The translations under genes were made by a program, and so were the position numbers. A stretch of 64,000 bases of DNA. Source: a virus. The stretch lies in the IMG/VR virus record IMGVR_UViG_3300045988_183361; one strand, 5' to 3'. Positions 2,327 through 59,117 of this stretch are shown piece after piece. The notes beneath the pieces were generated by a model that saw only the letters and a list, made by a program, of their open reading frames with translations, ran no database searches and was not told the origin of the DNA. Position 1 is the first letter of the stretch, and the number at the start of each line of letters is the position of its first letter.

Positions 2327-3586
2327 TTAAATTACCAAGGTCTGTATCATTTCAGTTGACCTTGCCATTATGCGTTTACAATTACTCAATTTAGGTGTCT
2401 TGTATCCTTTTGGCATTGCCGAAAAATCAACCTTGTTACCATCTATATCCATGAGAACTGCATATCCAGTGGACATTCTACCCTTGATAAAATATTTGTT
2501 TCCAAAGTATCGAACTTTGTCAAATTTTCTAAAGCCACAAATCTTATCAGTGATAATAGGCTGTTCTGAACGAATCCCTTTTGTTTTTTGAAAATCACCA
2601 TCTGAAATGCATTTCTTTTTGTAAAGGTTGGATTTTACAGTAAATATATTGCCTTGTGTTGCAATCGTACAGGCATCATAATAATGTTCTTTGTCAATGC
2701 CAAGAAGCAAACGGTTAGCTTTTGTCACATATCCGAAGGTCTCAACTGCATCTGGATATAATTTAAAAAGCTGTTTACGAATAGAGTTCATCTGTGTGGC
2801 ATATTTAAGATTACCTTTAACTTTACCACTCAATTTGGGGTTAATTTTTCCACTATGTAAATCTTTATGACAGGTATGACACAGAGTAATTAGATTACTT
2901 TCTTCATCAGAACCCCCCTGACTACGAAATAAAATATGATGAACTTCTAACTTACTATCCTTATGTTTGCCTTTACAATATTGACAAGTATAATTATCTC
3001 GATTAAGAACCATCGCTTTGGTATTCTCAAACCCATAATTAATACCTTTCTGATAACCCCAATGTTTAATTTTAGGATTAGCAAGATTTGGATTTTTCAT
3101 AAGGTGAGTATCAAACTGACCTGTCTCAAATACCATTTCTGTAATCGGAAGAATAAATTTAATATATTTTATCTCTTTAACATGACTATGAAGCTTACTC
3201 TGCATCGTAGGGCTAAATCTATCATTCTTAATAGAATTAGCACGATTTAACCATCTTGCTTTTCTATAACGAGCTTTACGATTTCGTCTGTTTCTACGAT
3301 ACTTTGCTCTTTGTGTCATTTTGCCGGTAATGTCGTTTCTTATAACAACTTCCGACATATAGATAATATCTCCATTGTCTTTGCTTACAGAAGTGCCAAT
3401 AGTTCCGCTTCCGGTATCTACACCAAGAGTTAAGTCTTGAGTGTAATTTGTTGTTTCATAAGTCAATTTAATTGTAAATGGCTCACGTTTCTTAACTTTT
3501 GCTTTGCTTTGTTTAAGTAACAATCTTGCTATAGAGTTACTACAGGGCATTAGTGGTTTACCATCTTGTGAAATCACATAAACCAT
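2327..3586 (-). CDS. iscB: IscB RNA-guided nuclease (PLMP, RuvC-I, Arg-rich bridge helix, RuvC-II, HNH, RuvC-III)
   Basis: motifs read from translation: DGKPLMP; LGVDTGSGTIG; RAKYRRNRRNRKARYRKARW; FETGQFD; CQYC..HHI..N..LCHTCH; HYYDA; strong SD AAGGAGG. Confidence 0.85.
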   Translation of the reverse strand: MVYVISQDGKPLMPCSNSIARLLLKQSKAKVKKREPFTIKLTYETTNYTQDLTLGVDTGSGTIGTSVSKDNGDIIYMSEVVIRNDITGKMTQRAKYRRNRRNRKARYRKARWLNRANSIKNDRFSPTMQSKLHSHVKEIKYIKFILPITEMVFETGQFDTHLMKNPNLANPKIKHWGYQKGINYGFENTKAMVLNRDNYTCQYCKGKHKDSKLEVHHILFRSQGGSDEESNLITLCHTCHKDLHSGKINPKLSGKVKGNLKYATQMNSIRKQLFKLYPDAVETFGYVTKANRLLLGIDKEHYYDACTIATQGNIFTVKSNLYKKKCISDGDFQKTKGIRSEQPIITDKICGFRKFDKVRYFGNKYFIKGRMSTGYAVLMDIDGNKVDFSAMPKGYKTPKLSNCKRIMARSTEMIQTLVI

Positions 3587-3858
3587 AAATAAGTTCCTCC
3601 TTATAAATACTCTACTTAATAGTAGGTGATGCGTACTTTGTCGTACTGTTTACCATACGATTGTTCCGACTTCAACTCGACAATGATATAAAGGCTTTTA
3701 TGTACATATCACAAGGCTGTTCTTACTCTGACCTAACTTAAATATGTACGATAGAGCAACGGTCTGTTGCGTCAACCGAAGGTATCATAACCTAAATATC
3801 GTAGTATCCATTTCTGAATACTTAGTCTGGTGAACCATTTAACAGAAGCCCACTACCT
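3587..3858 (-). ncRNA. putative omega-RNA (guide-RNA scaffold) of the IscB element
   Basis: 272-nt non-coding stretch immediately 5' of iscB on the same strand, clearly GC-richer than its surroundings, multiple stable hairpins; matches the known IscB locus architecture. Confidence 0.5.
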
Positions 3859-4800
3859 TTAGGTGGTGGGTAGTTCACTTAATTCACCTGATTCTTTGTT
3901 AAATATAAATATATCTGAACTCAGATAATCTTCTTCTTCCTGAATACCAAATATCTTTAATGCCATTTGAATTTCTTCAGGAGTAAATTCATTGTATTTA
4001 CATATCAACAGAATATGTGCTGTAACAGGAACAATGTATAAATTTGTTTTCAGTTTCTCTGAAATATTCTTAAGCAAATTATTATTCAGAATTGCACTTG
4101 TGTTATAAAAGTCAATTATATTTTGAATTGCATATATTCCTTTAATACATTTGCTCTCAAACCCATCAGAATTACTTAGAGAAAATAATTCTTTCTTTGT
4201 TTTTTCATAATTATCATCATCTGCCAGTTGCGTCAAAAAATAATCACCTAATACACTGATAAAATATTTGTTGGAATATATTGAATGAATTGCAAGATTG
4301 TACAATTCGTTTTCATCAATTTTCAGTATGTCTCTCATATAGTTATTATCAATTACAAACATTGTACCTTCTGAATTTTCTTTAGGTATGATCACATTAT
4401 AAATTATTTCGAACTCATAAAATGGCCTATGAGGAATACCGCTTAAATCTTCCATATTGTCCGGCTTTTGTATTAATTGAGGTATAATATAGTGTTTTAT
4501 ATCATTTAAATTAATTTCTGGAGCTAAATTATTAAGTTTATATTCACTACCATTAGAATTTTTGTTTCTATAAAATGCTTCAGATATTGACAATGCAATT
4601 TCTTCTATTGACGAATTATTTAAATATTGTTTATATAATTGATTTAATTTAAATTCTAAGGGACACATAAACTGATTTTTAGAATGAAAAATAAGCTTAT
4701 CTGATGTGCAAACTATATCTGTTGGTGTAATATCTTCAATATTTTGAAGTAATTCGAATTTAAGATGTTTAAGAAAATCTTCGTAATTCATTTTTTGCAT
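3859..4800 (-). CDS. hypothetical protein
   Basis: ORF track; SD AAAGGAGAATTAATTAT; TGTCATAT box at 4837-4852. Confidence 0.6.
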   Translation of the reverse strand: MQKMNYEDFLKHLKFELLQNIEDITPTDIVCTSDKLIFHSKNQFMCPLEFKLNQLYKQYLNNSSIEEIALSISEAFYRNKNSNGSEYKLNNLAPEINLNDIKHYIIPQLIQKPDNMEDLSGIPHRPFYEFEIIYNVIIPKENSEGTMFVIDNNYMRDILKIDENELYNLAIHSIYSNKYFISVLGDYFLTQLADDDNYEKTKKELFSLSNSDGFESKCIKGIYAIQNIIDFYNTSAILNNNLLKNISEKLKTNLYIVPVTAHILLICKYNEFTPEEIQMALKIFGIQEEEDYLSSDIFIFNKESGELSELPTT

Positions 4801-4836
4801 ATAATTAATTCTCCTTTTATTTAGTTATATTTTTAA

Positions 4837-4852
4837 TATGACAGAAAAAATG
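4837..4852 (-). promoter_or_regulatory. TTTTTCTGTCATAT box (putative promoter core) for 3859..4800
   Basis: conserved box about 37 nt upstream of ATG, preceded by an AT hairpin and U-run. Confidence 0.5.
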
Positions 4853-4997
4853 AATTATTATTTTACATAAAATAATTGATGTGTGTTAAAATAAGACAGC
4901 AACTAAATGTAAATGCCTTTTATTTATTAAAATATCCCGTTTTTGTGTTTTTCTAAGCACTTTATTGGGTATACTATGCCTTCACTTGTAAAAAATA

Positions 4998-5373
4998 ATA
5001 ACAATATATTGTACGTTTATTGTTATATATTAGTTTAATATGTTAACTTTATTAACAATATATAGTTATTTAAGATTTATTAAAATATAGCTAAGATACA
5101 AAAATAATAACAATATATAGATATAAAATATGATTTAATATACATTAAAAATAACAACATTATGTTATAGAATAGAAAAATTTGTGTAATAAAATTAACA
5201 ATATATAGCTAAATATTTGATACATAAATGTAATAATGATAACAATATATAGTAATGTATTATCCGTTGCATAGCCAATAAAATGCCTTATATGTGTCAG
5301 AATAATACCATGATGTAGTTATCATATGCTGATTTAAGAGATAAAAAATGTTAATTTGATAACATATAATTGG
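4998..5373. repeat. iteron-like array: at least 5 direct copies of (A/T)TAACAATATATAG plus degenerate copies
   Basis: copies at about 4998, 5051, 5105, 5194, 5239 and variants at 5151 and 5358; spacing 45-55 bp; inside a 1.3-kb gene-free AT-rich region. Confidence 0.5.
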
Positions 5374-6081
5374 TAATATTAGCAATTATATATGGATTAA
5401 TTGGGTACAATAGACTGTATGATCAGTGAGAAAAATAAATATAACTGATTAATGGGATATAATTATTATTTACTAAAGTTAATTAATGGAATTACTGGAA
5501 ACATATATAGGAATGATAGAGTAAAGGAAATAGATCTAAGAGCAAATAAGAAAGAATTAGTGTATAAGAATGCAGCTATTGGAGATAGAAATGGGATTAT
5601 TGGGCTTACTAAGGCATTTGCAGGGCGAAGAATAGATTTACAGGAATCTAGTAATCATAATTTTTGTAATTATCATATATTATATATGAGGGAATTATAT
5701 TATTTATTAGTGTATTAAAGGCATTAATTGGGATAAATGAAGTGCTTGCTAGAGACAGGTAAGGAATTACCAGGGAAATAAACACAAAATGTATTAAGCT
5801 GATAAATGATATTGTATAAGGATATGACAATAATAGTTATACGCTTTTAATCCTTAATAATATTCTGGCGGTTATTATATTAAGTCTTAAAACGCTATTA
5901 AGGAATAATCAAATGTATTATATAAGGCTCTAATTTTTATATTTTAATAATAAAAAGCGTATCAATGGAAAAGAAAATAATAAAAAGGTTCTAAAAAAGG
6001 TGTATGACATATTACACTTAAAGGAAGTGTAATCATAAAAAAAATACAGCTACCTATTGATAACTGCATTTTATTTATATA

Positions 6082-7110
6082 TTACATAAAAGATTGTATA
6101 CTATATCCTTTCCGTCTGAAACGAACTCTAATCTTTTTTATTGCTTTTGATTCAATCTGTCTGATTCGTTCTCTGGATACATTCCATTCAGTACCTATAT
6201 CTTGTAAAGTTTTAACTTTTGAGCCATATCCCATTCTACCCTTAATTACATATAATTCTCTAGGAGTGAGACAATCTTCAACTTCTTTCCAAAGCAGTTC
6301 TTTCATTTCTTTTTGAATAATCGTATCTTCAACTTTAGGTTCAGGAGCTTCTATATAATCAGCCAAACATGAATCGTCATGGCCTTCATCACTTTGAATA
6401 GGTGCATCTAATGAAACCAATTCATTAAAACTCTGAATATGCACAAGCATTTCTTTAGTTAAAAGAGGATATCTTTGTTTTACTACATCATATAATTCAT
6501 CAATTGTAGGTTTTCTTTGAAGTTTATTAGTTAAATCCACAAATGTAGTCTTAACAAAAGAATCCTGTTCTCTTACATGTACAGGGAATCTAACTAATAA
6601 ATCATAATTGGCTAATTCTCTATATATACTCTGTCTAATCCAATGAGTTGCATAAGTTGAAAATGCATATCCTAATTTATAATCAAACATTTGTATAGCT
6701 CTGTATAACCCGAAAATACCGGCCTGACATAAATCATCCATTTCAAAACTTTGCGTTTTAGCTGTAACAGCTTTAGCAATACTGATGACTAAACGCATAT
6801 TAGATAAAATCAATTTTTCGGTTATTTCTTTTTTCTTTTTAGGATGTTTTTTTATCTCTTCAAATAATTTAAGAGTTTCATCTTTGGATAAAACCGGATA
6901 ATCAGCGAATGATTTAATATAATAAGTTATATTATTTTCTAATAATAGTTTCTCTTTTTCATTTAAAATCTCTTTATCATTTAAAATATCGGTATAATTA
7001 TCCTCTGATAAAATATTTATGTTTTCTATTGGTTTATTTGTATCAAATAATTCATCAATATATTCATCTTTATTGTTTTTTTTATTTAATAATAAATTCT
7101 TATCTGCCAT
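6082..7110 (-). CDS. sigma-70 family RNA polymerase sigma factor (regions 2 and 4 present)
   Basis: region 2-like YAFSTYATHWIRQSI; region 4.2 HTH LQDIGTEWNVSRERIRQIESKAIKKIR. Confidence 0.85.
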   Translation of the reverse strand: MADKNLLLNKKNNKDEYIDELFDTNKPIENINILSEDNYTDILNDKEILNEKEKLLLENNITYYIKSFADYPVLSKDETLKLFEEIKKHPKKKKEITEKLILSNMRLVISIAKAVTAKTQSFEMDDLCQAGIFGLYRAIQMFDYKLGYAFSTYATHWIRQSIYRELANYDLLVRFPVHVREQDSFVKTTFVDLTNKLQRKPTIDELYDVVKQRYPLLTKEMLVHIQSFNELVSLDAPIQSDEGHDDSCLADYIEAPEPKVEDTIIQKEMKELLWKEVEDCLTPRELYVIKGRMGYGSKVKTLQDIGTEWNVSRERIRQIESKAIKKIRVRFRRKGYSIQSFM

Positions 7111-7122
7111 AAAAATCTCCTC

Positions 7123-7518
7123 TTAACATTGATGTCCTAGCATTTTTAATTCATTATTTGCTTCTATTTTCATTGTACATATTCTACTAATTGCATTATA
7201 TGTAAATTTAGATTGCTCTTCAAAGGTTCCTAATATATCTCGTTTAATCATAAGCTCTTTACATTTATCTGAAGACTCTTTGTGTAATTTCATTTCTTTT
7301 ACCATTGAATCTAAAATAGAATGCATTGAGGAAAAATAGGTAAAATAATTTCCTACTTCACTCAATAAATTTCCTATTTCCAATAAATCTATTTCATCTG
7401 ATCTAGGAATTTCTTTCTTAAAATTAATTAAATACCATTCATATAAATCCGTTGAAGAAGCTTCAAGGATATCACTTATAGACTTATTTTTTAATTCATT
7501 ATTCATATTTGTTTCCAT
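7123..7518 (-). CDS. hypothetical protein, co-transcribed between CPBP protease and sigma factor
   Basis: ORF track; tight spacing to flanking genes. Confidence 0.5.
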   Translation of the reverse strand: METNMNNELKNKSISDILEASSTDLYEWYLINFKKEIPRSDEIDLLEIGNLLSEVGNYFTYFSSMHSILDSMVKEMKLHKESSDKCKELMIKRDILGTFEEQSKFTYNAISRICTMKIEANNELKMLGHQC

Positions 7519-7521
7519 AAA

Positions 7522-8433
7522 TTATTGCTCCTTAATTTCTATATTGATATTTTCAAAACACTTAATTACAAAATAAATTAAACTCATTATGCAGACTATT
7601 AAAATGCATACCTGTAAATATATATTTGTTATAAAAAACGTAAATGGTATTAATGCCACACAGTTTATTAGAATATGATATAAGCTGCTAAGTTTAATAC
7701 CATATTTATCTCTTACAGCACCTAACAAATATCCGCCAAAAGCATATATAGGGAATAAAATAAAATTAAAATGAATTATTCCAAATAAAACTGCTTGGAT
7801 TATATTTGCACATAATTTATTGTTGCTTGCTTTATATGCATAGCCATAAATTATATATCTAAAAGTCAATTCCTCAATAATAGGTGCCACAAAAGTTGCT
7901 ATTATTGTAGATATAATTGTTTTTATTCCTAAACTTCCATAATCAATATCTGATACATTTACAAAATGCATTTGAATTCCTGAAATAAGCTGCAATATTA
8001 CAGAAATTAATATGAAACAAAATGCAAAATTCCAATTTACTACTAATTTATTTTTCATAAACAAATCTTTTTTATAATTGTAAAATGAGCTTTTTATACA
8101 AATAAGGCACATAACAAACATTAATGTATATGTTGATATTGTGTAAATTAATCGAAATCCTTCATAATCTATTTTAGTTGAAATTCCTCCTGCATCATTC
8201 ATATACATATTTAATAGACTGTCTATAAATGTTGCAATAAACATTGAAAATAAAATTATAAAAACAGAAATAATAAATGGAATAAAAATCTTTATATACT
8301 GTTTTGATTTTGAAAAGAAAGAATTACTTTTCATTTTGTTTTTCACCATAAAATCCATATAAGAATTTAAATCATGCTTATTTTTTTTATTTCTTAATTC
8401 CTTAATATTACTGTTATTGTTACTAAGTATCAT
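7522..8433 (-). CDS. CPBP-family (CAAX/Abi) intramembrane metalloprotease
   Basis: multi-TM; IIEELTFRYIIYGY (EExxxR) and FGIIHFNF (FxxxH) motifs. Confidence 0.7.
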   Translation of the reverse strand: MILSNNNSNIKELRNKKNKHDLNSYMDFMVKNKMKSNSFFSKSKQYIKIFIPFIISVFIILFSMFIATFIDSLLNMYMNDAGGISTKIDYEGFRLIYTISTYTLMFVMCLICIKSSFYNYKKDLFMKNKLVVNWNFAFCFILISVILQLISGIQMHFVNVSDIDYGSLGIKTIISTIIATFVAPIIEELTFRYIIYGYAYKASNNKLCANIIQAVLFGIIHFNFILFPIYAFGGYLLGAVRDKYGIKLSSLYHILINCVALIPFTFFITNIYLQVCILIVCIMSLIYFVIKCFENINIEIKEQ

Positions 8434-8462
8434 ATATTTTCCTCCAACCTTTCTAATATATA

Positions 8463-8476
8463 TATGACAGATACAA
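8463..8476 (-). promoter_or_regulatory. CTGTCATAT box for the CPBP-hyp-sigma operon
   Basis: box preceded by terminator ACCGCTGTTTATTGCAGCGGT + U-run; 30 nt before ATG 8433. Confidence 0.5.
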
Positions 8477-8545
8477 TTTTAAAAATCTTTACATAAAAAA
8501 ATACCGCTGCAATAAACAGCGGTAAAACATAAAATAAATATTAAA

Positions 8546-10231
8546 TTAGCATTTGCGTACTATTGAAGGTGCTGACATATCAGGGTTAATGAATTTCTTG
8601 CATAAATGTTCAATTCCGGTTGTTGAATCAAGCCAATATAAATAATCCCCGTCATTATCTACCAGATATTCATTAATAGAATCAAGAACATCGTTTACTT
8701 CGGAAACAGTACATATAAATCTGTATGAAGACTTATTTTTCTTTAAAGGTTTAACAGACTTAACAATAATCTGATATACAGTTTCGTCATCTGAAGATCT
8801 AAAATCATCTACTTGAATTTTTCCTGATAAACATAATTTAGCATCATTAACAAGTAAGTCTCTAATATTTGCATAATCTTTAGAAAAACATACACCATTA
8901 ATAGAACCTGTTTTATCTTCTACCTCAAAAGTTACCCATTCGTATCCATTTCTATCCTTTCTTACAACAAGATTTTTAATTATACCAGATACATCGTTAA
9001 CTTCTGTTGAAATATCAGAAATGGGATCTGTATAAATATTATACTCATCAATTGGATGCCCTGTAATATAAACACCTAACACTTCTTTTTCATCATTTAG
9101 AATCTGACCTAAATCATCTTCTACATAATCAATATCTATATTTTCAAGATCATCTTCTAAGCTTTCTATAACTGTCTTAGCTGAATTGATACGTTTAATT
9201 ATGGAATCCTTAGTTGGCATCTTTTTTGAAGTAACTTGAAAGGAAATATTTTCTTCTGAAATTCTTTCCTTAAACTCATCAAGATCAATATAATCTTCCA
9301 CAAATTCAATAACTTTACTTGCGTTTTCAATAAACTTACTCTTCTCTCTGATTTTCTTAATTGTATCCTGAATTTCTTTCATACAAATCATATCTAATGA
9401 TATCATTGTTCTTGTATAACCAAGGCAATCGAAAGCACCTGCTTTAATTAAGGAACTTAATGCTTCTGCATTAATATTTGTTCGTTTGATAAAATCCTTA
9501 ATATCAGAATATTCTCCATTAACATTTCTATCTTCAATAATTTTAGCTGCTTCTGATCCAACATTCTTAATATTACTCAGACCATACAAAATGTTCCCAT
9601 CTACAACATCACAATGTAAATTTGAAGCATTAATGTCCGGAGGCAATACCTTTACTCCAAAATCAAGGGCATCACTAATATCATCAGCGACTTCATCAAT
9701 CTTATCAGTATGATTTATTACATTTGTAAGATAATAAGCCGGATAATAATACTTAAGAAAAGCAGTCCAATATGATGTAACAGCATAAGCAGTAGCATGT
9801 GACTTATTAAACGCATACTTAGCAAAGTCAACCATCGCATCCCAGATTTTATGAGCAATTTCTTCTGATATTCCATTTGCAATACAACCTGGTACTAATG
9901 CTTCATTTTCTTTTTTAGTATCAGCATTACCATATACAAAAGTGTGTCTTTCAGCATCAATCTCATCCTGATGTTTTTTTGACATAGCTCTACGGACTAA
10001 ATCAGAACGCCCCCATGTATATCCTGCTAAATCACGAACAATCTGCATTACCTGTTCCTGATAAACTATCTGTCCATAAGTAGTTGACAAAATTGGCTCT
10101 AATTGAGGACATAAATATTTAATCTTAGATGCATCCTTTTTACCTTCTATGAAATCAGGTATAAACTTTTCAGGACCAGGACGATATAAAGCATTCATTG
10201 CTATTAAATCTTCAATACCTGTTTTATTCAT
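8546..10231 (-). CDS. dnaE: DNA polymerase III alpha (DnaE-type), C-terminal part as an independent gene
   Basis: NALYRPGP, YGQIVYQEQVMQIV, fingers/OB-like regions; own TGTCATAA box, SD AAAGGAGAAA and ATG. Confidence 0.85.
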   Translation of the reverse strand: MNKTGIEDLIAMNALYRPGPEKFIPDFIEGKKDASKIKYLCPQLEPILSTTYGQIVYQEQVMQIVRDLAGYTWGRSDLVRRAMSKKHQDEIDAERHTFVYGNADTKKENEALVPGCIANGISEEIAHKIWDAMVDFAKYAFNKSHATAYAVTSYWTAFLKYYYPAYYLTNVINHTDKIDEVADDISDALDFGVKVLPPDINASNLHCDVVDGNILYGLSNIKNVGSEAAKIIEDRNVNGEYSDIKDFIKRTNINAEALSSLIKAGAFDCLGYTRTMISLDMICMKEIQDTIKKIREKSKFIENASKVIEFVEDYIDLDEFKERISEENISFQVTSKKMPTKDSIIKRINSAKTVIESLEDDLENIDIDYVEDDLGQILNDEKEVLGVYITGHPIDEYNIYTDPISDISTEVNDVSGIIKNLVVRKDRNGYEWVTFEVEDKTGSINGVCFSKDYANIRDLLVNDAKLCLSGKIQVDDFRSSDDETVYQIIVKSVKPLKKNKSSYRFICTVSEVNDVLDSINEYLVDNDGDYLYWLDSTTGIEHLCKKFINPDMSAPSIVRKC

Positions 10232-12654: not shown

Positions 12655-12669
12655 TATGACAGAAAAAAA
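12655..12669 (-). promoter_or_regulatory. TTTTTTTCTGTCATAA box for the FEN gene
   Basis: preceded by GCGGGAGACUUAUGUUUCCUGC hairpin (G-U pairs) + U7. Confidence 0.5.
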
Positions 12670-12730
12670 GCAGGAAACATAAGTCTCCCGCTTTCAAAAA
12701 ATCTTATTTAGTTATGAAAAATCAAAATAT

Positions 12731-13158: not shown

Positions 13159-13617
13159 TTACAATGTACTTTTTATAACCTTAACAGGTTCTAATCTGCC
13201 GTTTATAAATGAAGCAGTTCCTAATGTTTTATCAGTATTTTTAGAAGATTCAAAGAAATCATTTGCCATATCCTCATTTGAAAAATATGAATATTCTCCT
13301 GAATTGTCTCCGCAATCTGACTCATATCCTATCCAAACATAATAAAATGAAAATCTTTCAAGGTTATCACTGTCGTCAGGGATTGCTCCGTTCCAATCAT
13401 CATTTTCTTTTATATCTTCTTCTAATTCATATTTAAACTCGCTCATCATATTAGGATCGTCTAAATATACACATTTATGGTAATTATCAACTGCAATTGC
13501 GCATTTCTGTCCTAATGGATGCAGTAAATAATTCTTAGGCACTTCCAATAATGCTCCTATCATATCATTTACTGTTTCTAAGTTATTTTCCTTAATTTCA
13601 AATGCATTAGTTTTCAT
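13159..13617 (-). CDS. hypothetical protein
   Basis: ORF track; box at 13654. Confidence 0.5.
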   Translation of the reverse strand: MKTNAFEIKENNLETVNDMIGALLEVPKNYLLHPLGQKCAIAVDNYHKCVYLDDPNMMSEFKYELEEDIKENDDWNGAIPDDSDNLERFSFYYVWIGYESDCGDNSGEYSYFSNEDMANDFFESSKNTDKTLGTASFINGRLEPVKVIKSTL

Positions 13618-15676: not shown

Positions 15677-15780
15677 AATATTGTTCTCCTTTATTTATTA
15701 TAATTTAAAAGAAATATGACAGAAAAAACGCACATCATAATGACATGCGTTTTAATACAAAATATTCAATTAACTATTCA

Positions 15781-16539
15781 CTATGAGCATAACTTCTTAA
15801 GGTTATTTCTCATACCGGCTGACTCAAACTGGAAAACATTCTTAGTTCTTCCTTTTGCATATACTTCTTTGTATACCTTATCAGCTTTAGGACCCTCTAA
15901 TGGAATATTCATTACATCAATTACTTCTCCTGTATCTCTCTGAATCATTCTGAGTGTGTCAGTAATAATTGTAAGAGTTTTTAATCCAAGAAAATCCATT
16001 TTTAATAATCCATTAGCTTCGCACTGAATCATGTCCATTTCTGTAGTTTTAATTCCCTTTTTTCCATCTCTAATAGGAATATAATCAGTAACATCATTAC
16101 TATCATAAATAATAACACCTGCGGCATGTTGTGCGTATGTCGTAAGCATACCTTCACAATGAGCTGCAATATTAAGAATAGAAATAGCATCTGGATTACT
16201 ATTATATTCATCCTTTAAGAAATCTAACAAAGAAATGCTGTCCTGAATATTAATGCCTAATTCATCAACCTTATTAGTATCTTTCATGCCAACAATATCT
16301 TCAAAATTAGTTGCTTTAGCAGGCACTTTCTTACGAATCTGATCTCCTAAAGATAAGAATTTCTTTTCATCATCATAAGCTTTCTTTCCATAATATCTTG
16401 CAGCATCTCTGATAGCACCTTTAGCCTGCTGTCTTGATTCTGTAATAATTCCAACAACAGCTTCACTACCATATTTAGCTCTTACATACTCAATTGTCTT
16501 TTCTCTTACTCCAAGAGCAAGATCACTATCGATATCCAA
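15781..16539 (-). CDS. dnaE: DnaE-type Pol III alpha, middle segment (exon 2 / palm-thumb)
   Basis: begins DIDSDLA (the PDxD DID.DF catalytic motif), ends FQFESAGMRNNLKKL; followed by its own terminator. Confidence 0.8.
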   Translation of the reverse strand: MDIDSDLALGVREKTIEYVRAKYGSEAVVGIITESRQQAKGAIRDAARYYGKKAYDDEKKFLSLGDQIRKKVPAKATNFEDIVGMKDTNKVDELGINIQDSISLLDFLKDEYNSNPDAISILNIAAHCEGMLTTYAQHAAGVIIYDSNDVTDYIPIRDGKKGIKTTEMDMIQCEANGLLKMDFLGLKTLTIITDTLRMIQRDTGEVIDVMNIPLEGPKADKVYKEVYAKGRTKNVFQFESAGMRNNLKKLCS

Positions 16540-17477
16540 ATATACCCCTACTTTCGTAGTACTTTAACACTTGTATAAGTGGGATTAGACTATATCTCAA
16601 TATAATATTGTTAATATTATATTTCAACGCACTTCCAACTGTAACCATTCTCAGTTGTACTCCTTAAAAAGGATAGTCGTTACACTTTAAAATAAATAAT
16701 ATTATATACGAACAATTTTTAAGTCATTCCATTTTAAATATTTATGCATTGAGGAATAACTTGCGTTATATTTTTCTTTAGCATATCGAGCTGCTGCTAA
16801 TATGCTTTCAAATCTATCAATTAATATATCTCCTTTATATAATTTACAACACTTATAATTTCTTACAGGAGACATAGTTTTATAACTATCATATAAATTG
16901 TCTTTTCTAGTACACCATTCTAAATTATTCACCTTACAATTTTGTTTATTTTTGTCTTTATGATTAACTTCTGGTAGATTATAAGGATTAGGAATAAAAT
17001 TCATCGCAACTAATCGATGCAATAAAAATTTTTTATTATCTAATCTTATCATCCTGTAATTCTTTTTACTATCTAAAAAAGGTTTAAGTTGTCGAATTTT
17101 CCCTTGTTTTATACTAAAAATCTTTCCATATGAAGTTATGTAATATTCGTGGTGATTTTTAATTTCTACTATTTTTTCACCTTTTTCAAGGAATGATGTA
17201 AAATTGATATAATCTATCATAAATATACACCTCCTTATTTATATAATATTATTTATAATCTTAGCACGGTATCGCCTGCTATCCTTCAATATCTTTTATA
17301 TAAAAATACGAGGACCGTAGGTTCTCTTACGAAGCTGCTTCGTCTATGGGTTAAGCTATATATCCTGTTGTGACACTTTATATAGCAGTCTTATTCAACT
17401 TCTACCGTTAGCACTTAATAATAAAATATTAAGCACACCTCTGAGTTAGAGTCCACGCTGAACGCCCAATATATTTA
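16540..17477 (-). ncRNA. group I intron interrupting dnaE, with HNH homing-endonuclease ORF
   Basis: about 940 nt inserted exactly between ..ERVSMP and DIDSD.. of the DnaE active site; GC-richer structured flanks at 17221-17477 and 16540-16701 around an internal ORF with its own SD. Confidence 0.6.
16702..17220 (-). CDS. HNH homing endonuclease (intron-encoded)
   Basis: NHKDKNKQNCKVNNLEWCTRKDN HNH-type motif; SD AAGGAGGTG; sits inside the intron. Confidence 0.8.
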   Translation of the reverse strand: MIDYINFTSFLEKGEKIVEIKNHHEYYITSYGKIFSIKQGKIRQLKPFLDSKKNYRMIRLDNKKFLLHRLVAMNFIPNPYNLPEVNHKDKNKQNCKVNNLEWCTRKDNLYDSYKTMSPVRNYKCCKLYKGDILIDRFESILAAARYAKEKYNASYSSMHKYLKWNDLKIVRI

Positions 17478-19270
17478 GGCATACTTACTCTTTCTGGATT
17501 TAAGAATCGTTCAAAAATCAGATTATACTTAAATGGATCAATTCCGGTAATACCAAGTAAATATGTAACCAATGAACCGGCACCTGAACCTCTTCCAATG
17601 CCTATTCCAATTCCGGTATTATAATTGTGAGTCTTAACATACTCTTTTGCACCTTCAATTGTTAAAGGTACTTCTGATAGTTTATCCATAGGCACTAATC
17701 CACAAATTCTTCCATATTCCAGAAAGTCCTTTACAATTAAATGATAATCGGCAAAGCCCATCTGAATGATAATATTAAGTTCGTATTCCATTCGTTTCTG
17801 ATGTTCTTCATCCCATCCTTTTCCGTTAGGATATCTCCAATTAATTCCCTTAATTGCTTCAGATCTTAATAATTCGTTTGAGTCCTTGTTCTTATCAAAT
17901 ACTGGATAATGATTAGATTTTTCTGGAATATAAGCACATCTTTTTCCAATTACATTTAAGTTATTGAGTGCTTCTGCAACCTGATCATCTGTTAATATAG
18001 CTGATAAGGCCTGAGCAAGTTCGTAAGGTGTTTTTACATATAACTCTTTATCTGATTCCGACTCACTTATCTTAATAAATCTTAAAAATTTAGCTACATT
18101 ACGCATATCAATACTTCTATCAGAATTATCTGCCATATGTGCATCATTAGCAGCAACTAATGGGATATTATGCTTCCTTGCTAACTGAGCTAACACAGGA
18201 TATGTTCTGCTTTCCATTTCAAGCCCATGATTCTGAACTTCAATGTAATAATTACCTGCTCCAAAAATTTCCTGATAAAAAAGCATTGTCTTTTCTGCTT
18301 CAGACATTAATTCTATTGGGCTTTTCTTTAATGATTCATAATGCTGTATCTTATTTTCATGATTAATATATTCCTCTACTTTAAGACTTATATCCTTTAA
18401 CTCGGCTTTCTTAGCATTAACTAATTTTCTGACATTAGGAATTTTATCTTTAGCTTCCAGAATTTTATTATTTATCTCCTCATATTCGTTAATCAGTTTA
18501 ATAAGCTCTGGATCATCATCATTTAAACACTTTCTTGCATCTCTTAATTTTCTTGAAATCTGTGTTCTTTCTGATTTAAGTTCCTTGGAATCACGAATAT
18601 TAATCAATTCATCTAAATCTGCCGATACCCTTTCAAATTCATCTTTAGCTGAAAGATATTCTTTATCATCAGGACTTATACAATCACGTATAACTAGCTC
18701 GTCTTTTTCAGTAGTATGCTGCTGTGCTTTTCTTTCTCTGTTAATCATTTTATCCAAAACATCATCTGATAATAATTGCAGAGCTGGTGCACCCGAAACG
18801 CAAGCAGAAGTTGCTATTATATCACCGTTAAAGTTATATTTCTTTAAATCTGATATTGTAATAACAGGCTTTCCCATTCTTTTTTCAGAAGCCTTAGAAT
18901 TTAACTTATCAATAATATGCTTGCCTCTTTCTGAAGTGGCTAACATAATCATATGGCCAATCTGCTCATTTATCTTAAATGGTGGCACTTCAATATAAGC
19001 CTCTACGCCATAAATGATATTAAAAGGATGTTCCTCAGTACTTATTTTCTTAGCGTAATCAATACATGTTTGCATTGCTGAAAATGATGCATGGTCCGTA
19101 ACAGCAAATTTAGTATATCCTGCATTAAATGCAGCATCTAAATAACTTTTAGGTTCATCTACGGCATCAAACAAAGAGCCTCCTGGATGGTTATGTTCAC
19201 ACACTGTAACTCCTGACTCAATAACCTTTTTTGTTAATTCTCCAATTTTTACATGTTCAAACATTGACAT
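17429..19270 (-). CDS. dnaE: DnaE-type Pol III alpha, N-terminal PHP + palm segment (exon 1; coding part probably ends near 17478, remainder is intron read-through)
   Basis: PHP motifs [20 protein letters not shown]; palm [34 protein letters not shown]. Confidence 0.85.
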
Positions 19271-20533: not shown

Positions 20534-20665
20534 AATGAAAAATCTCCTTTTTTTATTTTATTCAAATAAAATATGACAGAAAAATTAAAACAAAATAGGA
20601 TTAAAGCATATACATGCCTTAACCCTACTTTTTAAATTAATTATAGAGAATTCCGTTAATATCAA

Positions 20666-21964: not shown

Positions 21965-23314
21965 ATGGACATAAAATCAAGCTATGCAGTTGAAGTTAAG
22001 AATATTAACAAATTGTTCAATCCAACAATTAAAATTTATAATCAGGCTGTAACTTTTTGCATCCAGGTGTTTGAAAATGAGTGGTCTGTATTAAAAGATA
22101 TTAATGACTCAAAAATACAATGTGGTGTTGCAAGGAACTTAATTCATTCTACAAAGTCAAATAAAGCTAAGTATTCAGAGTTTGATAAATTGTTCCACAA
22201 AATGCCCAGCTATTGTACTACAGCAGTCATCAATGCATCTCTCGGTGTACTTAATTCTTATCATTCAAACTTACAGAACTGGTATGATGAAGGCTGCAAA
22301 GGTAATCGTCCTACATTGCAGATTCATACCAATAAATATCCAGTCTTTTATAAAGACAACATGTATAAGTGGGCTGATACAAAAAATGCCATACTGCTCA
22401 AGCTTTTTATAAACAATGACTGGCAGTGGGTAAAGCTGCGCTTAAAACATACTGATGTGCAAAGTATTAAAAAGCACAGTATCAATGCAAAAATTTCTGT
22501 GCCTACATTAGAGAAAAAGCATAAGAAATGGTTTCTGCGATTTGCGTTTGAAAGCAAAGCAATTTTAAATAAGACACCATTATCTAAGCAGAGAATCCTA
22601 GCCGTTGATCTGGGTATTAACACAGATGCTATCTGTTCAGTTATGGATTATTATGGAACTGTCCTTGCAAGATGTTTTATCAATCATGCAAGTGAAAAAG
22701 ACTATATTAAACATAATCTAAACAGGATAAAAAAGTATCAGGCTGCAGGGCAAAAAGATGTGGTCCGGAAGTTATGGAGTTTAGTTAAGAATTACAATAA
22801 TGAGCTTGCGTCAAAAACTGCTAATGCCATAGTGGATTATGCCAGACAATTAAATGTCGATGTTATAGTATTTGAACATCTGGATATGAAAGGCAGGAAG
22901 AGAGGATCCAAGCGCCAGTTATTACACATGTGGAATAAGAATACTATACAGAGAATTGTCACTCATAAGGCTCATTTATCAGGTATCCGCATCAGTCATA
23001 TATGTGCAAGGAACACAAGTAAGTTAGCATATGACGGTTCAGGATATGTACTAAGAGGAAAAGACGCAGGATTGCTTACATATGAACTTTGCAGATTCCA
23101 GACTGGCAAAATATATAACTGTGATTTATCTGCATCTTATAATATAGGAGCCAGATATTTTATTCGTGAAATCGAGAAATTATATACAGGGAAATCCATA
23201 TGTAAAAAAATAAACATATGGTCTGATATCCAGGCGAAAGTACCTGAATGTCAAAGAAGAACACAAAATACCCTTTCAACACTAAGAGCTATACATCAAT
23301 GTTTAGCAGTTTAG
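21965..23314 (+). CDS. tnpB: TnpB (OMEGA RuvC-like RNA-guided nuclease)
   Basis: RILAVDLGINTDA (RuvC-I), VIVFEHLDMKG (RuvC-II E), Cys zinc-finger, NCDLSASYNIGARYF (RuvC-III). Confidence 0.85.
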   Translation: MDIKSSYAVEVKNINKLFNPTIKIYNQAVTFCIQVFENEWSVLKDINDSKIQCGVARNLIHSTKSNKAKYSEFDKLFHKMPSYCTTAVINASLGVLNSYHSNLQNWYDEGCKGNRPTLQIHTNKYPVFYKDNMYKWADTKNAILLKLFINNDWQWVKLRLKHTDVQSIKKHSINAKISVPTLEKKHKKWFLRFAFESKAILNKTPLSKQRILAVDLGINTDAICSVMDYYGTVLARCFINHASEKDYIKHNLNRIKKYQAAGQKDVVRKLWSLVKNYNNELASKTANAIVDYARQLNVDVIVFEHLDMKGRKRGSKRQLLHMWNKNTIQRIVTHKAHLSGIRISHICARNTSKLAYDGSGYVLRGKDAGLLTYELCRFQTGKIYNCDLSASYNIGARYFIREIEKLYTGKSICKKINIWSDIQAKVPECQRRTQNTLSTLRAIHQCLAV

Positions 23315-31202: not shown

Positions 31203-32777
31203 TTACTTAGTAGAATTCTTTTCTGACTTAGACACTTTCTCAGGAACATTCTTTACAGTTACCTTAATCTCCGGGTCAACATCTTCTGGAATGCCTGTAA
31301 AGTTCACATTCTTTGTTGTCTTGGCATCATATGTATTAGCCTTCATTACTTCTGTAAGGTCAAAACCAGTTGTTTCCTTAACAGATTCAATTGTCTTTGC
31401 AAGTACTGATGGTACATTACTGCTAAATGAACCTACTCCGGTTTCACCATTACCACTGTCAATAATAGTTACCTTATCAATGGCTTCTAATGGCTTTGCA
31501 ATAGCTCCTGCCATCTCTGGAAGTACTTTGATAATCATTTCAGTCATGGCAGCCTTACCATACTTAGCCATTGCATCTGCTTTCTTCTCCATAGCTTCAG
31601 CTTCAGCTAATCCTTTTGCCTTAATACTTTCAGCATCAGCAACACCTTTTGCCTTAATACTCTCTGCTTCTGCAAAGCCCTGTGCCTTTACTGCTTCAGC
31701 TTCCTGTTCCTTAGCAAATCTGTCTGCTTCTGCCTGTGATTTCTTAGCTTCAGCCTGCTTCTGAATTTCAAACTGCTTTGCTTCTGCTTCCTTCTGTCTC
31801 TGATAAAGTTCTGCATCTGCCTTTTGCTGTGCTGCATACTTTTCAGCTTCGGCCTGCTTACGGATATCAGCATCAAGTGTTTTTTCCTTAACAGTGATTT
31901 CCTTTTCTCTTAATTCAATTTCCTTTTCCTGCTTTGCAATATTAGCATTGGCAGTAGTGATTTCAATTGTCTTTCTCTGTTCCTGCTGCTGGATTTCATA
32001 TGCCGCATCAGCTTCAGCCTTCTTAACATCTGCTGCTCTCTTTAATTCCTGCTTCTTAATCTCAAGTTCATTATTTCTTTCTGCAATAGCTGTCTCAGCT
32101 TCAATTCTTGCATCATTAGCCTGCTTTTCAGCATTAGCCTTTGCAACTGCAATATCTCTTTCTGATTCTGCTCTTGATATCTGTGCTGACTTACTGATAC
32201 TTACAACCCTGTCAATACCAAGGTTTTCAATAACATTACCTTCATCTGTAACATTCTGAACATTAAAGCTTACAATTTCAAGACCCATTCTTTCCATATC
32301 AGGAGCAGCATTCTCCTGTACCTTTTCAGCAAATAACTTTCTGTCCTGTACAATATCCTCAAGCTTCATCTGTCCTATAATTTCACGGACATTACCTTCA
32401 AGTACATCTACAACTGATTCTCTGATATAATCTGAATTTTTATTAAGGAAGTTACTTGCAGCCTTTCCAAGCATTTCAGGTGATGAACCAATCTTAATCT
32501 TTACAGCAGAATCAATATTAACATTAATATACTCATTTGTTGGTACTGATTCCTTTGTCTTTACATCAACAGAAATCATCTTTAAATCAAGCTTATCTAC
32601 TCTCTGTAAAAATGGTATCTTAAGTGATGACCTTCCGATAACATACTTAGGTGTCTTTCTAAGTCCTGATACAATAAGTGCCTTGTCTGTCGGAGCCTTA
32701 ATATAACTTGCAAATAATAATGCAATTAATACTACAACCACCGCTACTACAATTCCAATCGTTACTTCAATTCCCAT
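31203..32777 (-). CDS. flotillin / SPFH (band 7) domain protein with long coiled-coil
   Basis: N-terminal TM, SPFH-like region, extended A/E/K/Q-rich coiled-coil typical of FloT/YuaG. Confidence 0.8.
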   Translation of the reverse strand: MGIEVTIGIVVAVVVVLIALLFASYIKAPTDKALIVSGLRKTPKYVIGRSSLKIPFLQRVDKLDLKMISVDVKTKESVPTNEYINVNIDSAVKIKIGSSPEMLGKAASNFLNKNSDYIRESVVDVLEGNVREIIGQMKLEDIVQDRKLFAEKVQENAAPDMERMGLEIVSFNVQNVTDEGNVIENLGIDRVVSISKSAQISRAESERDIAVAKANAEKQANDARIEAETAIAERNNELEIKKQELKRAADVKKAEADAAYEIQQQEQRKTIEITTANANIAKQEKEIELREKEITVKEKTLDADIRKQAEAEKYAAQQKADAELYQRQKEAEAKQFEIQKQAEAKKSQAEADRFAKEQEAEAVKAQGFAEAESIKAKGVADAESIKAKGLAEAEAMEKKADAMAKYGKAAMTEMIIKVLPEMAGAIAKPLEAIDKVTIIDSGNGETGVGSFSSNVPSVLAKTIESVKETTGFDLTEVMKANTYDAKTTKNVNFTGIPEDVDPEIKVTVKNVPEKVSKSEKNSTK

Positions 32778-42584: not shown

Positions 42585-42990
42585 TATTTCTTCTCCTTTA
42601 TTAATTATATTCTGATAGATATATGACAGAAAAATTAATAGGAGTATGTATATAATTTTTATTCCCTTATTACAATAAATGATAAAGTAATTTTTAGACT
42701 TAATTTAATTAATATGAAAATATCAAATTTATTAATAATAGAGTATGGAGTTTTACTATAATTTTTGTAAAATTACATTTTAGAAAACAAATAATTACTA
42801 AAATATAAATCAGCTTATTAATAGATTAATTTATATATCAAAAATATTCAAAAATATAATTCTGGGTGCTGTTGATATTTTTAAAATTTATAAAAATAAT
42901 ATATGAAATGATTCATTTGATTTTAGGGTAACTTTAATAAGAATACCGTGTATACGCCATTCCAAATTCTAAAATATTGATATTATTTTT

Positions 42991-44757
42991 TTATAAATCA
43001 AATACTAGCCTGTAATTTGGATTAAGAGCAATACTTACGTCATTATGACTTAAGCTATGTTTATCCATAAATCCGCAGGCATCAAGTTTAAAGATGATAT
43101 CGTCAACATCATCTTTCCATAATCCCCATTTTTTGTCCTGATAATATATTTTTTCAAATGAATTAAAAAAGCTTGAATTTAAAATAAATTCCTTTATCTT
43201 CTTTCTAAGTATTCTATATTTGTTTGTATGTTTTTTTATTGTATCTAACTTTTCTTTATATTTTTTTACAAGCTTTTGTTTGTCTATTATGGGATTCCTC
43301 CGTGTAGCGCCAACAATTTTTCTTTTATTAATTTCTTTGATATTATTTTTTATCTGTTCAAGTCTGTCAGCATCTTCAGTAAGCTTTCGTGAAATTACAT
43401 TTGAAGATACATGCAATTCTTTCATTATTTCCTTATATGTTTTACCCATTGCATATAATTCTACAATTTTATTATATTTAAATTCTCTTCGTTTTTTGTT
43501 TCTTTCTACCTGTTCTTTTTTCTTTAACTTTTCTTCCATTCTATAGCCTTCAAGATTTTTAAGACCATATTCTCTTCTTGCTGTAAGTGGATCCAACCCT
43601 AACCCTTTTATGAAGGTCGTTGTTTTAAATTTACACCAATTCACATTATTAACATTATTAAAATCTTTGAATGTAAATAGTTCTAATTCATCAATTGATA
43701 ATGGCTCTGAAGTTTTCTTTGTCAGCTTCAGCATTTCCTTTTTTGCAGTTTCATCATCATATGCTGCTCTCAAAGTATTGTATGCGTAATATGCAAAATC
43801 TAATTTATCAACATACTTAGGAACAGCATCCTTAGCAAAATTATTAAGGAATTCTATTCTGTTTATTAAATTATCCTGTAAATATGAAGGAAGGTTTAAT
43901 TTATTGCTGCTTTTGCTGTCTGAATCTTCATAGTTTACAATATCATGCAATCTGTCATTATTCTTTATAAAATATAAAGGGTGTAATGTGTTATATAAAT
44001 CATGTACAGTTGTTTTATTCTTATTAATAAATAATAATGTTGGAGTCTCAAAATTTATTGCATCATAAGTTCCAGGTACACGAATTAAAGAGTCACATTT
44101 TACTGACTCTTTGTCTACTTCAGGGAAACCTAATGAAATTCCATTCATGTCTATTTGTTTATTTATAACCTGTAATAATACCTTTCCTACCAGATTATAT
44201 TTCCACAAGAGATCCTTTGATAATTCTTCAATGCCATATATTAATTCAACTTCATTATATATAGCGTTAATAATATTAGGCTTTGGGGCATCTCCTAAAA
44301 TATAATCATAGTTATTGAGGAAATATTGAATATTGTTTTTATAATCTTCTTCTGGCCATATTATTCTTACACATATAGCTTTTAGACAGAATATGTTCTT
44401 TTCACACCTAGCCATTCGCTTTTGTATTCTACTATGTGGTGTTTTACCAGTACTATACCCTGAAGTAGAAAAACCTATTTCAATTTTGTCATAGAATTCT
44501 TTATCTGAAACAACAGATGTCTTTAATGGGTTAATGCACATATATCTATTATATTCTTCGTTTAAATAATCTTTATTGAGATTAGAAAGCACATCTTTTG
44601 CATTAGACCTAAAAACTGCTGTCTTAGATGAATCATTAACATTTAATGCAACAAATTGATAATGGCATTGATACTGCTCATTTTCTTGTTCTGTTATAAA
44701 TTTAATAGCCCTCTTCTCATTTTTATCTGCACAATTTAAAAATTTCTGTTTTGTCAT
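42991..44757 (-). CDS. hypothetical protein with sigma-70 region-4-like HTH (possible replication or regulatory protein)
   Basis: YAMGKTYKEIMKELHVSSNVISRKL HTH-like segment; lysine-rich C-terminus. Confidence 0.45.
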   Translation of the reverse strand: MTKQKFLNCADKNEKRAIKFITEQENEQYQCHYQFVALNVNDSSKTAVFRSNAKDVLSNLNKDYLNEEYNRYMCINPLKTSVVSDKEFYDKIEIGFSTSGYSTGKTPHSRIQKRMARCEKNIFCLKAICVRIIWPEEDYKNNIQYFLNNYDYILGDAPKPNIINAIYNEVELIYGIEELSKDLLWKYNLVGKVLLQVINKQIDMNGISLGFPEVDKESVKCDSLIRVPGTYDAINFETPTLLFINKNKTTVHDLYNTLHPLYFIKNNDRLHDIVNYEDSDSKSSNKLNLPSYLQDNLINRIEFLNNFAKDAVPKYVDKLDFAYYAYNTLRAAYDDETAKKEMLKLTKKTSEPLSIDELELFTFKDFNNVNNVNWCKFKTTTFIKGLGLDPLTARREYGLKNLEGYRMEEKLKKKEQVERNKKRREFKYNKIVELYAMGKTYKEIMKELHVSSNVISRKLTEDADRLEQIKNNIKEINKRKIVGATRRNPIIDKQKLVKKYKEKLDTIKKHTNKYRILRKKIKEFILNSSFFNSFEKIYYQDKKWGLWKDDVDDIIFKLDACGFMDKHSLSHNDVSIALNPNYRLVFDL

Positions 44758-53603: not shown

Positions 53604-53984
53604 TTAATCTGGATTATATGGATATTCTATAAAGAATTCATATTCCGGATTGTCGCTCATTAAGCGGGCAATATTTTCTGCTTTGGATACATAATATGTA
53701 TGTCTGTTATCCAACCCATCCTTTTCATTAAGCATTTCGCACTTAGCTCGTGTAACAATCTTATGAAACTGATTCCCGGATAAATCTACAATTATTTCGT
53801 TATCTCTATAGAAATAATCAATATTCTTTTTTTCAAGAATTTTGTTAATATAAGGAATTAATTCTTCTTTTGCCTTCTTAAAATGTCTCATATATAAGAC
53901 TCCCTTCTTGGAGTTATTCTCCATTAAATTTATTGATAAAAAATATATGACAGAAAAAACAGTATATGTTAAAGATTTATCCAA
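53604..53984 (-). CDS. hypothetical protein
   Basis: ORF track. Confidence 0.5.
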
Positions 53985-56310: not shown

Positions 56311-56344
56311 AATTTTTCTCCTTTATATTTATTTACACAATAAA

Positions 56345-56358
56345 TATGACAGAGAATA
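56345..56358 (-). promoter_or_regulatory. TTCTCTGTCATAT box for the PBP gene
   Basis: preceded by terminator AAAGCTCTCACCTTAATGGTGGGAGCTTT + U-run. Confidence 0.5.
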
Positions 56359-56588
56359 ACAAAAAGCTCCCACCATTAAGGTGAGAGCTTTAATCAAAGT
56401 TGCTAGTAGAATTGTAAAATTCTATTAAAGTGTATTTTTACAACAAAATTACCGGCTTTAACAAAAGTGCTAGTCTTTGAGGAGGCATATATGTATGCCT
56501 AATATATACCGACAATATTTTATCACATTGTAAATTATAATACAATATTGATTTAATTATTATATGACAGATTTTTGACTGCAAATTT

Positions 56589-59077: not shown

Positions 59078-59117
59078 AGGTCCTCCTTATAGTCAAAAAA
59101 AGTTATATTAATATATA

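Follow-up and report, generated by a model that had tools for sequence, protein, structure and literature searches.

A helically phased array of palindromic repeats in a non-coding region of a giant gut phage-like element: a possible orphan operator for NrdR

The window analysed here is a stretch of 64,000 nucleotides of viral DNA (IMG/VR record IMGVR_UViG_3300045988_183361) from what appears to be a giant gut phage-like element; its GC content is 28%, and nearly all of its genes lie on the minus strand. The subject of this report is a non-coding region (NCR) and the repeat array within it. A first-pass annotation had described this region as the largest non-coding stretch of the window, beside a sigma-factor operon; it is indeed the widest gap between open reading frames (ORFs) of at least 90 amino acids, and it adjoins a sigma-factor gene, the product of which was recognised as a sigma-70-family protein in profile scans (Pfam, PHROGs, and NCBIfam, run on nearly all window ORFs of at least 90 amino acids). 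Six same-orientation copies of a 16-bp partial palindrome were found between positions 4999 and 5255, and they resemble the operator box of NrdR, a Zn-ribbon/ATP-cone bacterial repressor that senses DNA-precursor levels and binds DNA only with dATP plus ATP. Six positions of the 16-bp, partly palindromic NrdR box are conserved, namely C4, A6, A8, T9, T11, and G13 (PMC13584703, PMC12051234). The sites are listed with the number of these key positions that each retains.

4801-6081, no strand: NCR, 1281 bp, between the sigma gene (6082-7110, minus) and a DUF5688 gene (3859-4800, minus).
5306-5321, minus: possible weak seventh box, TAACTACATCATGGTA, 5/6 key positions, centre 66 bp upstream of box 1; low matrix score, doubtful.
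5240-5255, minus: box 1, TTACTATATATTGTTA, 6/6; position 7, a non-conserved box position, is C in most sister genomes, and C4 is lost in one genome.
5196-5211, minus: box 2, TAGCTATATATTGTTA, 6/6; invariant in nine distinct sister sequences.
5152-5167, minus: box 3, TAACATAATGTTGTTA, 5/6 (A6 replaced by T), a degenerate copy; T11 varies among sister genomes.
5108-5123, minus: box 4, TATCTATATATTGTTA, 6/6; invariant in sister genomes.
5053-5068, minus: box 5, TAACTATATATTGTTA, 6/6; invariant in sister genomes.
4999-5014, minus: box 6, GTACAATATATTGTTA, 6/6; invariant in sister genomes.

The 13-mer TAACAATATATAG occurs exactly on the plus strand at 5053, 5108, 5196, and 5240, with one mismatch at 4999, and nowhere else in the 64 kb; four exact copies within 300 nt were not obtained in any of 2000 Markov shuffles, the shuffle maximum being two. 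The repeats noticed in the first pass are thus real, although their positions had been placed 1-3 nt off; the degenerate copy seen near 5151 is box 3, whereas a further copy proposed at 5358 retains only three of the six key positions and is unsupported as a site. On the gene strand, the consensus of the 16-bp box is TAAC-TATATATT-GTTA, and comparison between lineages gave the repeated unit as an 18-bp dyad, ATAAC-N8-GTTAT, followed by an A- or T-tract in constant orientation.

Relatives were found through the neighbouring proteins. The sigma protein has a single moderately distant relative group (51% identity; L005-L009, lineage 2), and the adjacent 131 amino acid protein identified a third group (62% identity; L045-L048, lineage 3), the window and its sister genomes being lineage 1. 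Gene order in all three is DNA polymerase III (PolIII), an Rce1-like gene, a gene for a protein of 128-131 amino acids, sigma, and then a gene-free region; lineages 2 and 3 have an extra gene, for a membrane-anchored protein, after sigma. The gene-free region is ~1.25-1.33 kb at the matching syntenic place (L005, 12027-13356; L045, 12641-13885), and the genes downstream of it are unrelated between lineages. An array of the same architecture occupies one syntenic position in the three lineages, with six boxes in the window and seven to eight in the relatives. The repeats are thus conserved in related genomes, whereas their absence there was what the first-pass annotation had named as counting against its reading. 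A position weight matrix (PWM) built from 19 sites gave scores of 17.9-30.7 that were confined to the arrays of the window, L005, L045, and L046; the best match elsewhere in the window scored 13.4, and nothing comparable was found in L005, L045, and L046 outside their arrays. Across the nine distinct lineage-1 sequences, boxes 2, 4, 5, and 6 contained no variable columns over 72 nt, compared with nine over 151 nt of the spacers, which is suggestive of purifying selection on these four boxes. No similar array was found in annotated phages or plasmids, and exact matches to the 18-mer elsewhere in IMG/VR are isolated single sites.

The spacing of the boxes is not random. Their centres are 44, 44, 44, 55, and 54 bp apart in the window, 43, 43, 45, 44, 53, and 56 bp apart in L005, and 86, 66, 55, 44, 87, and 66 bp apart in L046. 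Over the lineages, these spacings form classes of 43-45, 53-56, 64-66, and 86-88 bp, i.e., ~32+11n with an ~11-bp phase. For 17 independent spacings, Rayleigh R was 0.907 at 10.7-10.8 bp, a value reached by none of 20,000 random sets, and positional coherence was 0.87-0.98 at 11.0 bp versus 0.10-0.23 at 10.5 bp. With centres ~32+11n bp apart, bound dimers would sit on one face of the DNA. Arrays gain and lose 44-bp units, and L045 lacks exactly one such unit that is found in its three sisters. Because the repeats are real, specific, conserved in relatives, and helically phased, a protein-binding array is well supported; on comparative sequence evidence, we regard it as established that these conserved, phased, and unique repeats are a cis-acting array of predicted protein-binding sites and not genes or RNA.

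Several other readings of the region were tried and rejected. Protein-coding or pseudogene content was rejected, as tblastn between lineages gave no signal for the short ORFs of 4801-6081, and the short ORF calls vary among near-identical genomes, where frameshifting indels and a 20-nt deletion occur. Tandem sigma-70 promoters were discarded: promoter-like matches were at the shuffle level (18 versus 18.0), and only one box had a plausible -10 partner. The array is bracketed by an inverted repeat (arms 4957-4972 and 5271-5286, no strand, 14/16 complementary), and lineage-specific GC-containing inverted repeats surround parts of the arrays in L005 and L045 in a topology that differs from that of the window. 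An invertible segment was rejected on this difference in topology between lineages and because 12 of 12 lineage-1 assemblies and seven others were collinear. A known RNA was rejected as well, since Rfam, at the gathering threshold and at E-values up to 10, gave no family in the NCR, the HEARO RNA at 3665-3878 belonging to the adjoining IscB gene. A reading in which the NCR works through its product, either a long non-coding RNA or a CRISPR-like array, with the repeats acting in RNA, is the least probable of all and hardly to be entertained. A promoter-like element is directed into the NCR, and in L005 and L045 the array segments form more stable folds than their shuffled versions (z of -4.1 and -8.7), but repeated palindromes alone give good folds, and the window array segment reached a z of only -1.0. 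The ~700-nt spacer between that element and the array shows no sequence conservation between lineages, tolerates indels, and folds no better than shuffles (z of -0.47 and -0.71), for which reason a structured RNA there was also rejected. For a CRISPR, the repeats are too degenerate and their spacing is too irregular, just ~13-24 nt being shared.

The first-pass annotation had offered an iteron-type replication origin, a partition site, or a repressor operator cluster. Of these, the general idea of a protein-binding array has stood, an origin has gained little, and the operator option fits best, by the single-box definition of NrdR sites. At an origin, an initiator encoded elsewhere would bind the phased dyad repeats, the array would melt, and the promoter-like element, together with the strand-asymmetric spacer, would provide transcriptional activation or an RNA primer. 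The array contains at least three same-orientation repeats in helical phase, as iteron origins do, whole units are gained and lost, and the repeat cluster is unique. It is also the lowest-GC stretch of 150 and of 250 nt in both the window (12-13%) and L005, and it stands at the end of a replication and recombination block of >55 kb that encodes a DnaE-type PolIII alpha subunit, a primase-like protein, RecA, RecJ, two UvrD helicases, and a 5'-3' exonuclease. All three lineages show a strong bias toward G and toward purines on the plus strand of the spacer, a composition known from R-loop-prone regions, and GC skew at third codon positions is higher downstream than upstream in each lineage (0.33 versus 0.27, 0.30 versus 0.16, and 0.23 versus 0.12). 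The direction of this difference is the one expected for an origin, but it lies within block-to-block variation and thus is not decisive. Bulk skew does not change sign across the NCR, genes have the same orientation on both sides, and neither a skew inflection, the check suggested in the first pass, nor a switch in gene orientation was found within -8/+58 kb. The search for a cognate initiator fared no better: no Rep-, DnaD-, or O-type initiator was detected in the 64 kb or its flanks, and no DnaA box within one mismatch in any lineage. The sites are 44-88 bp apart, not ~22 bp, and a full match to the NrdR box would have to be a coincidence. An origin is a serious rival that we consider unlikely; were it correct, this would be the first mapped origin of this uncultured group.

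Two further proposals rest partly on the same regularity. As a partition (centromere) site like F sopC, the array would present tandem units of ~44 bp, each with a palindrome for a ParB-type dimer, provided that the element is kept as a plasmid. The 43-45-bp unit with its internal dyad, single orientation, and unique cluster does resemble sopC, which has 43-bp units. The great size of the element (contigs reach 555 kb), its high prevalence, and its binning with a Lachnospira metagenome-assembled genome (MAG) would also suit this reading. Against this, neither the window nor 10-kb flanks in each of the three lineages yielded ParA, ParB, ParM, or TubZ, the sequences between the sites are not conserved as they would be in true tandem units, and the spacing is irregular in lineage 3; we judge a partition site improbable. 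A packaging or genome-end signal, in which the repeats would bind a terminase small subunit or mark the terminal-repeat boundary of a linear genome with one-way genes, would suit the single gene direction over >70 kb, the position of the largest non-coding gap ahead of small lineage-specific genes, and a phasing appropriate to a ring-shaped, DNA-wrapping protein. However, profile scans revealed no terminase gene nearby, and many long contigs assemble straight across the NCR, making this reading very improbable.

Our preferred, though tentative, reading is that the array is an orphan multi-operator for NrdR or an NrdR-like dimer, with non-canonical long linkers, acting as a sensor of the deoxynucleoside triphosphate (dNTP) state or as a repressor sink. 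A single box was defined by C4 and G13 8 bp apart, by A6, A8, T9, and T11, and by at least 63% AT between C4 and G13. C4 and G13 are both present, 8 bp apart, in all six window boxes; over the tabulated sites, C4 is found in 24 of 24 and G13 in 21 of 24, and the AT fraction between them is 0.75-1.0 throughout. The invariance of C4 accounts for the left "half-site," where variation spares the final C. Box 2 matches E. coli nrdEF box 1 (TTGCTATATATTGTGT) at 13 of 16 positions, and the core CTATATATTG is the same as in that E. coli box. The agreement with the six positions differs between lineages:

Window (six boxes): five boxes with 6/6, one with 5/6, none with 4/6.
L046 (seven boxes): four with 6/6, two with 5/6, one with 4/6.
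L005 (seven boxes): none with 6/6, six with 5/6, one with 4/6.

Binding of NrdR requires two boxes with centres an integer number of helix turns apart, most often with a 15-16-bp linker between them and, as a second optimum, with one of 24-27 bp (PMC13584703, PMC12051234), and a linker of 15-16 bp (14-18), or of 24-27 bp, was accordingly taken to define an operator. Array linkers are 27-29 bp (11 cases), 37-40, 48-50, and 70-72 bp. The integer-turn logic is kept (~32+11n), and only the 27-bp linkers touch the range in which NrdR has been assayed.

A number of results weigh against NrdR as the binder. The canonical linker of 15-16 bp occurs in no adjacent pair, so a defining feature of an NrdR operator is missing from the arrays; the closest pair of boxes in L045 is 55 bp apart, and published binding assays extend only to 27-bp spacers, with three of four NrdRs binding 7-70 times more weakly when the spacer was long. 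Lineage-2 boxes reach just 4-5 of the six positions. The bare six-position core occurs at chance frequency (20 matches in 64 kb versus ~21 estimated from base composition), and thus the likeness to NrdR lies in the repeated consensus and in no single site. Profile scans found no gene for ribonucleotide reductase (RNR) or NrdR in the 64 kb or in 8-10-kb flanks of the three lineages, and the array does not lie at an RNR or nrdR promoter. Gut contigs carrying nrdR yielded nothing usable as a native Lachnospira operator for comparison. To check whether this box type is used at the NrdR geometry elsewhere, IMG/VR was scanned for CTATATATTGTTA and a second core downstream of it, separated by a set linker; the result supports the NrdR reading but also raises two objections. 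With the 15-16-bp linker, 35 loci (L070-L104) were recovered from at least nine unrelated sequence families of viral contigs, and control linkers of 20-21 bp and of 27-29 bp gave none each. Where neighbouring ORFs were checked, those canonical pairs lie just upstream of genes for the terminase large subunit, portal, prohead protease, a family-A DNA polymerase, and an SSB-like protein, and in a Cro/CI switch, which shows the box type paired at the NrdR geometry in unrelated viral contigs. On the other side, no RNR was present among the ORFs checked, and one family of pairs lies between Cro/CI-type helix-turn-helix genes, so other repressors may use look-alike sites.

The look-alike pairs in Cro/CI switch regions of other phages bear directly on the second serious rival to an NrdR-type array, namely that the sites are operators of a regulator encoded by the element itself, e.g., an Xre/Cro-CI-type dimer, whose nucleoprotein complex would repress or insulate where the conserved replication/sigma module meets the variable downstream module. 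The sites are dyad-symmetric, the NCR is a synteny breakpoint between transcription units with promoter-like elements at both ends, and 17 nt separate the end of the last L045 box from the downstream TGTCATAT element belonging to the next gene. In the window and in L005, however, the promoter-like element that follows the last box is ~150 and ~250 nt away, respectively, and no sites were found at any other promoter in the 64 kb. Nor does a conserved DNA-binding gene adjoin the array: a conserved downstream regulator was rejected because the lineages have none in common, and the extra upstream gene of lineages 2 and 3 was rejected as the array binder because its product has an N-terminal membrane helix. 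The protein encoded at 42991-44757, which the first-pass annotation had put forward as a candidate binder, yielded nothing beyond a weak sigma-70/ECF-like match. We consider an element-encoded regulator doubtful, on much the same footing as an origin.

Returning to NrdR, we infer three things: that NrdR is the binder, that it binds across long linkers, and that binding has a physiological output. The protein, either the host's or a copy encoded elsewhere in the >500-kb genome, would bind the array, and its dimers, on one face of very AT-rich and bendable DNA, could build a higher-order complex. The array would thereby couple the element to the dNTP state of the cell. Its output could be a gating of transcription in or through the control region, or NrdR could be soaked up as genome copies accumulate, derepressing the RNR genes of the host. 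In the more specific form of the latter idea, which is itself rather doubtful, the array would be a DNA sponge: each replicated copy would add six to eight NrdR boxes that sequester the dATP/ATP-sensing repressor of the host, the host RNR genes would be derepressed, the dNTP supply would rise, and the element would need no regulator of its own, whereas a host-shared 20-mer in the NCR (see below) would be a second decoy or sensor for another host factor. NrdR is a near-universal switch of DNA-precursor synthesis and is studied as an antibacterial target; to our knowledge, its binding sites have been described only at RNR promoters, where the boxes occur in pairs. If our reading is true, mobile elements would read or manipulate the host dNTP sensor through DNA sites alone, and the arrays would be a natural test bed for NrdR on long spacers and multi-box arrays. 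Taken with the canonical pairs upstream of terminase, portal, polymerase, and lysogeny-switch genes, it would further suggest that phages commonly wire key genes to NrdR.

Conservation across lineages within the NCR is limited to three blocks: the 20-mer dyad with its promoter-like element, the repeat array, and the promoter-like element of the next gene. The features outside the array are as follows.

6041-6072, minus: hairpin resembling a terminator, belonging to the sigma operon; T-rich sequence on either side.
6000-6031, minus: conserved dyad and promoter-like element, TACACTT-N5-AAGTGTA-ATATGTCA-TACAC.
6000-6019, minus: 20-mer AAGTGTAATATGTCATACAC, identical in three lineages (L005, 12114-12133; L045, 12722-12741) and invariant in sister genomes.
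5260-5990, no strand: fast-evolving spacer of inverted strand composition; gene strand pyrimidine-rich, plus-strand GC skew to +0.58.
4836-4872, minus: promoter-like element of the downstream gene, TTATGTAAAA, 16 nt, TTCTGTCATAT; conserved in L005 and L045.

The 20-mer is a 7-8-7 dyad with a third AAGTGTA/TACACTT arm and holds the TGTCATA core of the promoter-like motif of the element. It also occurs in three unrelated bacterial contexts (loci L012-L044), namely beside def and upstream of both xth and an RlaP-like pseudogene, and its bacterial carriers include Eubacterium sp. isolates and a Lachnospira MAG. Being common to host-type genomes, it fits an NCR that interacts with host factors, and it could be the binding site of a host factor or a recombination core. 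In one sister genome, a 3.2-kb insertion with an IS3-type transposase (L049, 11468-14637; window ~6052-6070) lies inside the sigma terminator hairpin and leaves the 20-mer, spacer, and array intact. About 45 nt past the 20-mer, lineages 2 and 3 share a hairpin, TTCTTCCTCA(T/A)ATG ... CATATGAGGAAGA (L005, 12148-12227; L045, 12770-12826), that the window does not have. Short motifs that contain GC make up a second family, copies of which, both direct and inverted, lie around the arrays and upstream of them. Its window form is CCCAAT(T)AAT (4966-4971, 5274-5286, 5402-5407, 5599-5607, and 5723-5731), and its form in lineages 2 and 3 is GGGAATCCAT or GGGTAATCCAT (L005, 12293, 12664-12684, and 13262-13284; L045, 13022-13036 and 13464-13478), the arms changing concordantly between these two lineages.

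The motif TTCTGTCATAT is found 39 times in the window with at most one mismatch, versus 3.9 expected, and almost always on the gene strand just upstream of minus-strand ORFs (e.g., at 4836-4846, 8462-8472, 15714-15724, 20571-20581, and 42621-42631, all minus). Copies often follow a terminator-like hairpin and precede the ribosome-binding site by 25-40 nt; in a subclass, TTATGTAAAA lies ~15 nt upstream. From its distribution, the motif seems to mark a class of promoters proper to the element, which one of the element's sigma-like proteins may recognise.

The element itself appears to be a very common giant gut phage-like element with a genome of >500 kb, which may be a phage or a megaplasmid. 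Two IMG/VR contigs match the window at 96-98% identity, and the exact 131 amino acid neighbour protein is present in >2400 blocks of the assembly collection; cluster members are up to 831 kb in length, one of them binned as Lachnospira pectinoschiza. Megablast of window positions 3800-8500 against annotated phage and plasmid collections gave no match, and in these collections the sigma protein has no homologue above ~40% identity. The "Hodor" gut megaplasmids were rejected as its identity because they have a GC content of 44-47% and Rep_3/ParAB. Besides the replication and recombination set, the window codes for two sigma-like proteins, a methylase, IscB with HEARO RNA, and copies of TnpB. The following features lie outside the NCR.

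8546-10231, 15781-16539, and 17429-19270, minus: DnaE-type PolIII alpha in three ORFs (profile scans).
2327-3878, minus: IscB (RRXRR and HNH) with HEARO RNA (3665-3878), directly downstream of DUF5688.
21965-23314, plus, and 62487-63782, minus: two TnpB-family genes, the first very divergent (no Pfam match; NCBIfam E-value 2e-20).
42991-44757, minus: 588 amino acid protein, weak sigma-70/ECF-like match over residues 310-461.

The PolIII alpha gene is split first by an HNH endonuclease gene (16702-17220) and second by a 5.5-kb insert with the 5'-3' exonuclease, RlaP, and other genes; in relatives, it is in two or three pieces. The IscB insertion is present in some sister genomes and missing in others, pointing to a recent mobile insertion. 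The TnpB gene at 21965-23314 is the sole sizeable plus-strand gene of the window, and the product of 42991-44757 may, from its profile match, be a second and divergent sigma factor. Cell-type genes at 53977-60738 (minus) encode a class A penicillin-binding protein, a GGDEF cyclase, an HD-GYP-type protein, and a PARP-like protein; a flotillin gene (31203-32777) is also on the element.

Compared with the NrdR operators of E. coli (nrdHIEF, nrdAB, and nrdDG), Listeria, and Streptococcus, the array has the same 16-bp partial palindrome with six positions, C and G 8 bp apart, an AT-rich bendable centre, unconserved flanks and linkers, and centres integer helix turns apart. Among these, linkers of 24-26 bp and as many as three boxes are known from Streptococcus, and two box pairs from L. 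monocytogenes nrdAB. The array differs in having six to eight boxes versus two to four, in its linkers of 27-72 bp (never 15-16 bp), in its location on a giant phage-like element with no adjoining RNR or nrdR gene, and in overlapping no identifiable promoter except at the last box in L045. With iteron origins (phage lambda ori and plasmids P1, F, pSC101, and R6K), it shares same-orientation repeats, partial dyad symmetry, phasing, an AT-rich setting, and copy changes by whole units. Classical iterons are 17-22 bp, are contiguous or ~22 bp apart, and accompany the initiator gene, either adjoining it or lying within it; DnaA or IHF sites are often present as well. The classical size and spacing, an initiator gene, and DnaA or IHF sites were not found at the array. 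F sopC and the dispersed parS sites of N15 likewise have units of ~43-44 bp with a short palindrome, on which dimers build a higher-order complex, and N15 parS sites need not adjoin par genes; sopC units, however, are near-identical over their full length, whereas the array shares ~24 nt per unit and no par genes were seen. We know of no NrdR sink that has been described, and in the literature collection searched no paper had both "NrdR box" and "phage genome." Titration loci such as E. coli datA, a sink for DnaA, and P1 incA, a sink for RepA, are similar to the array in being clusters of operator or initiator sites with no gene to regulate, which would exert their effect by titrating a DNA-binding protein according to copy number.

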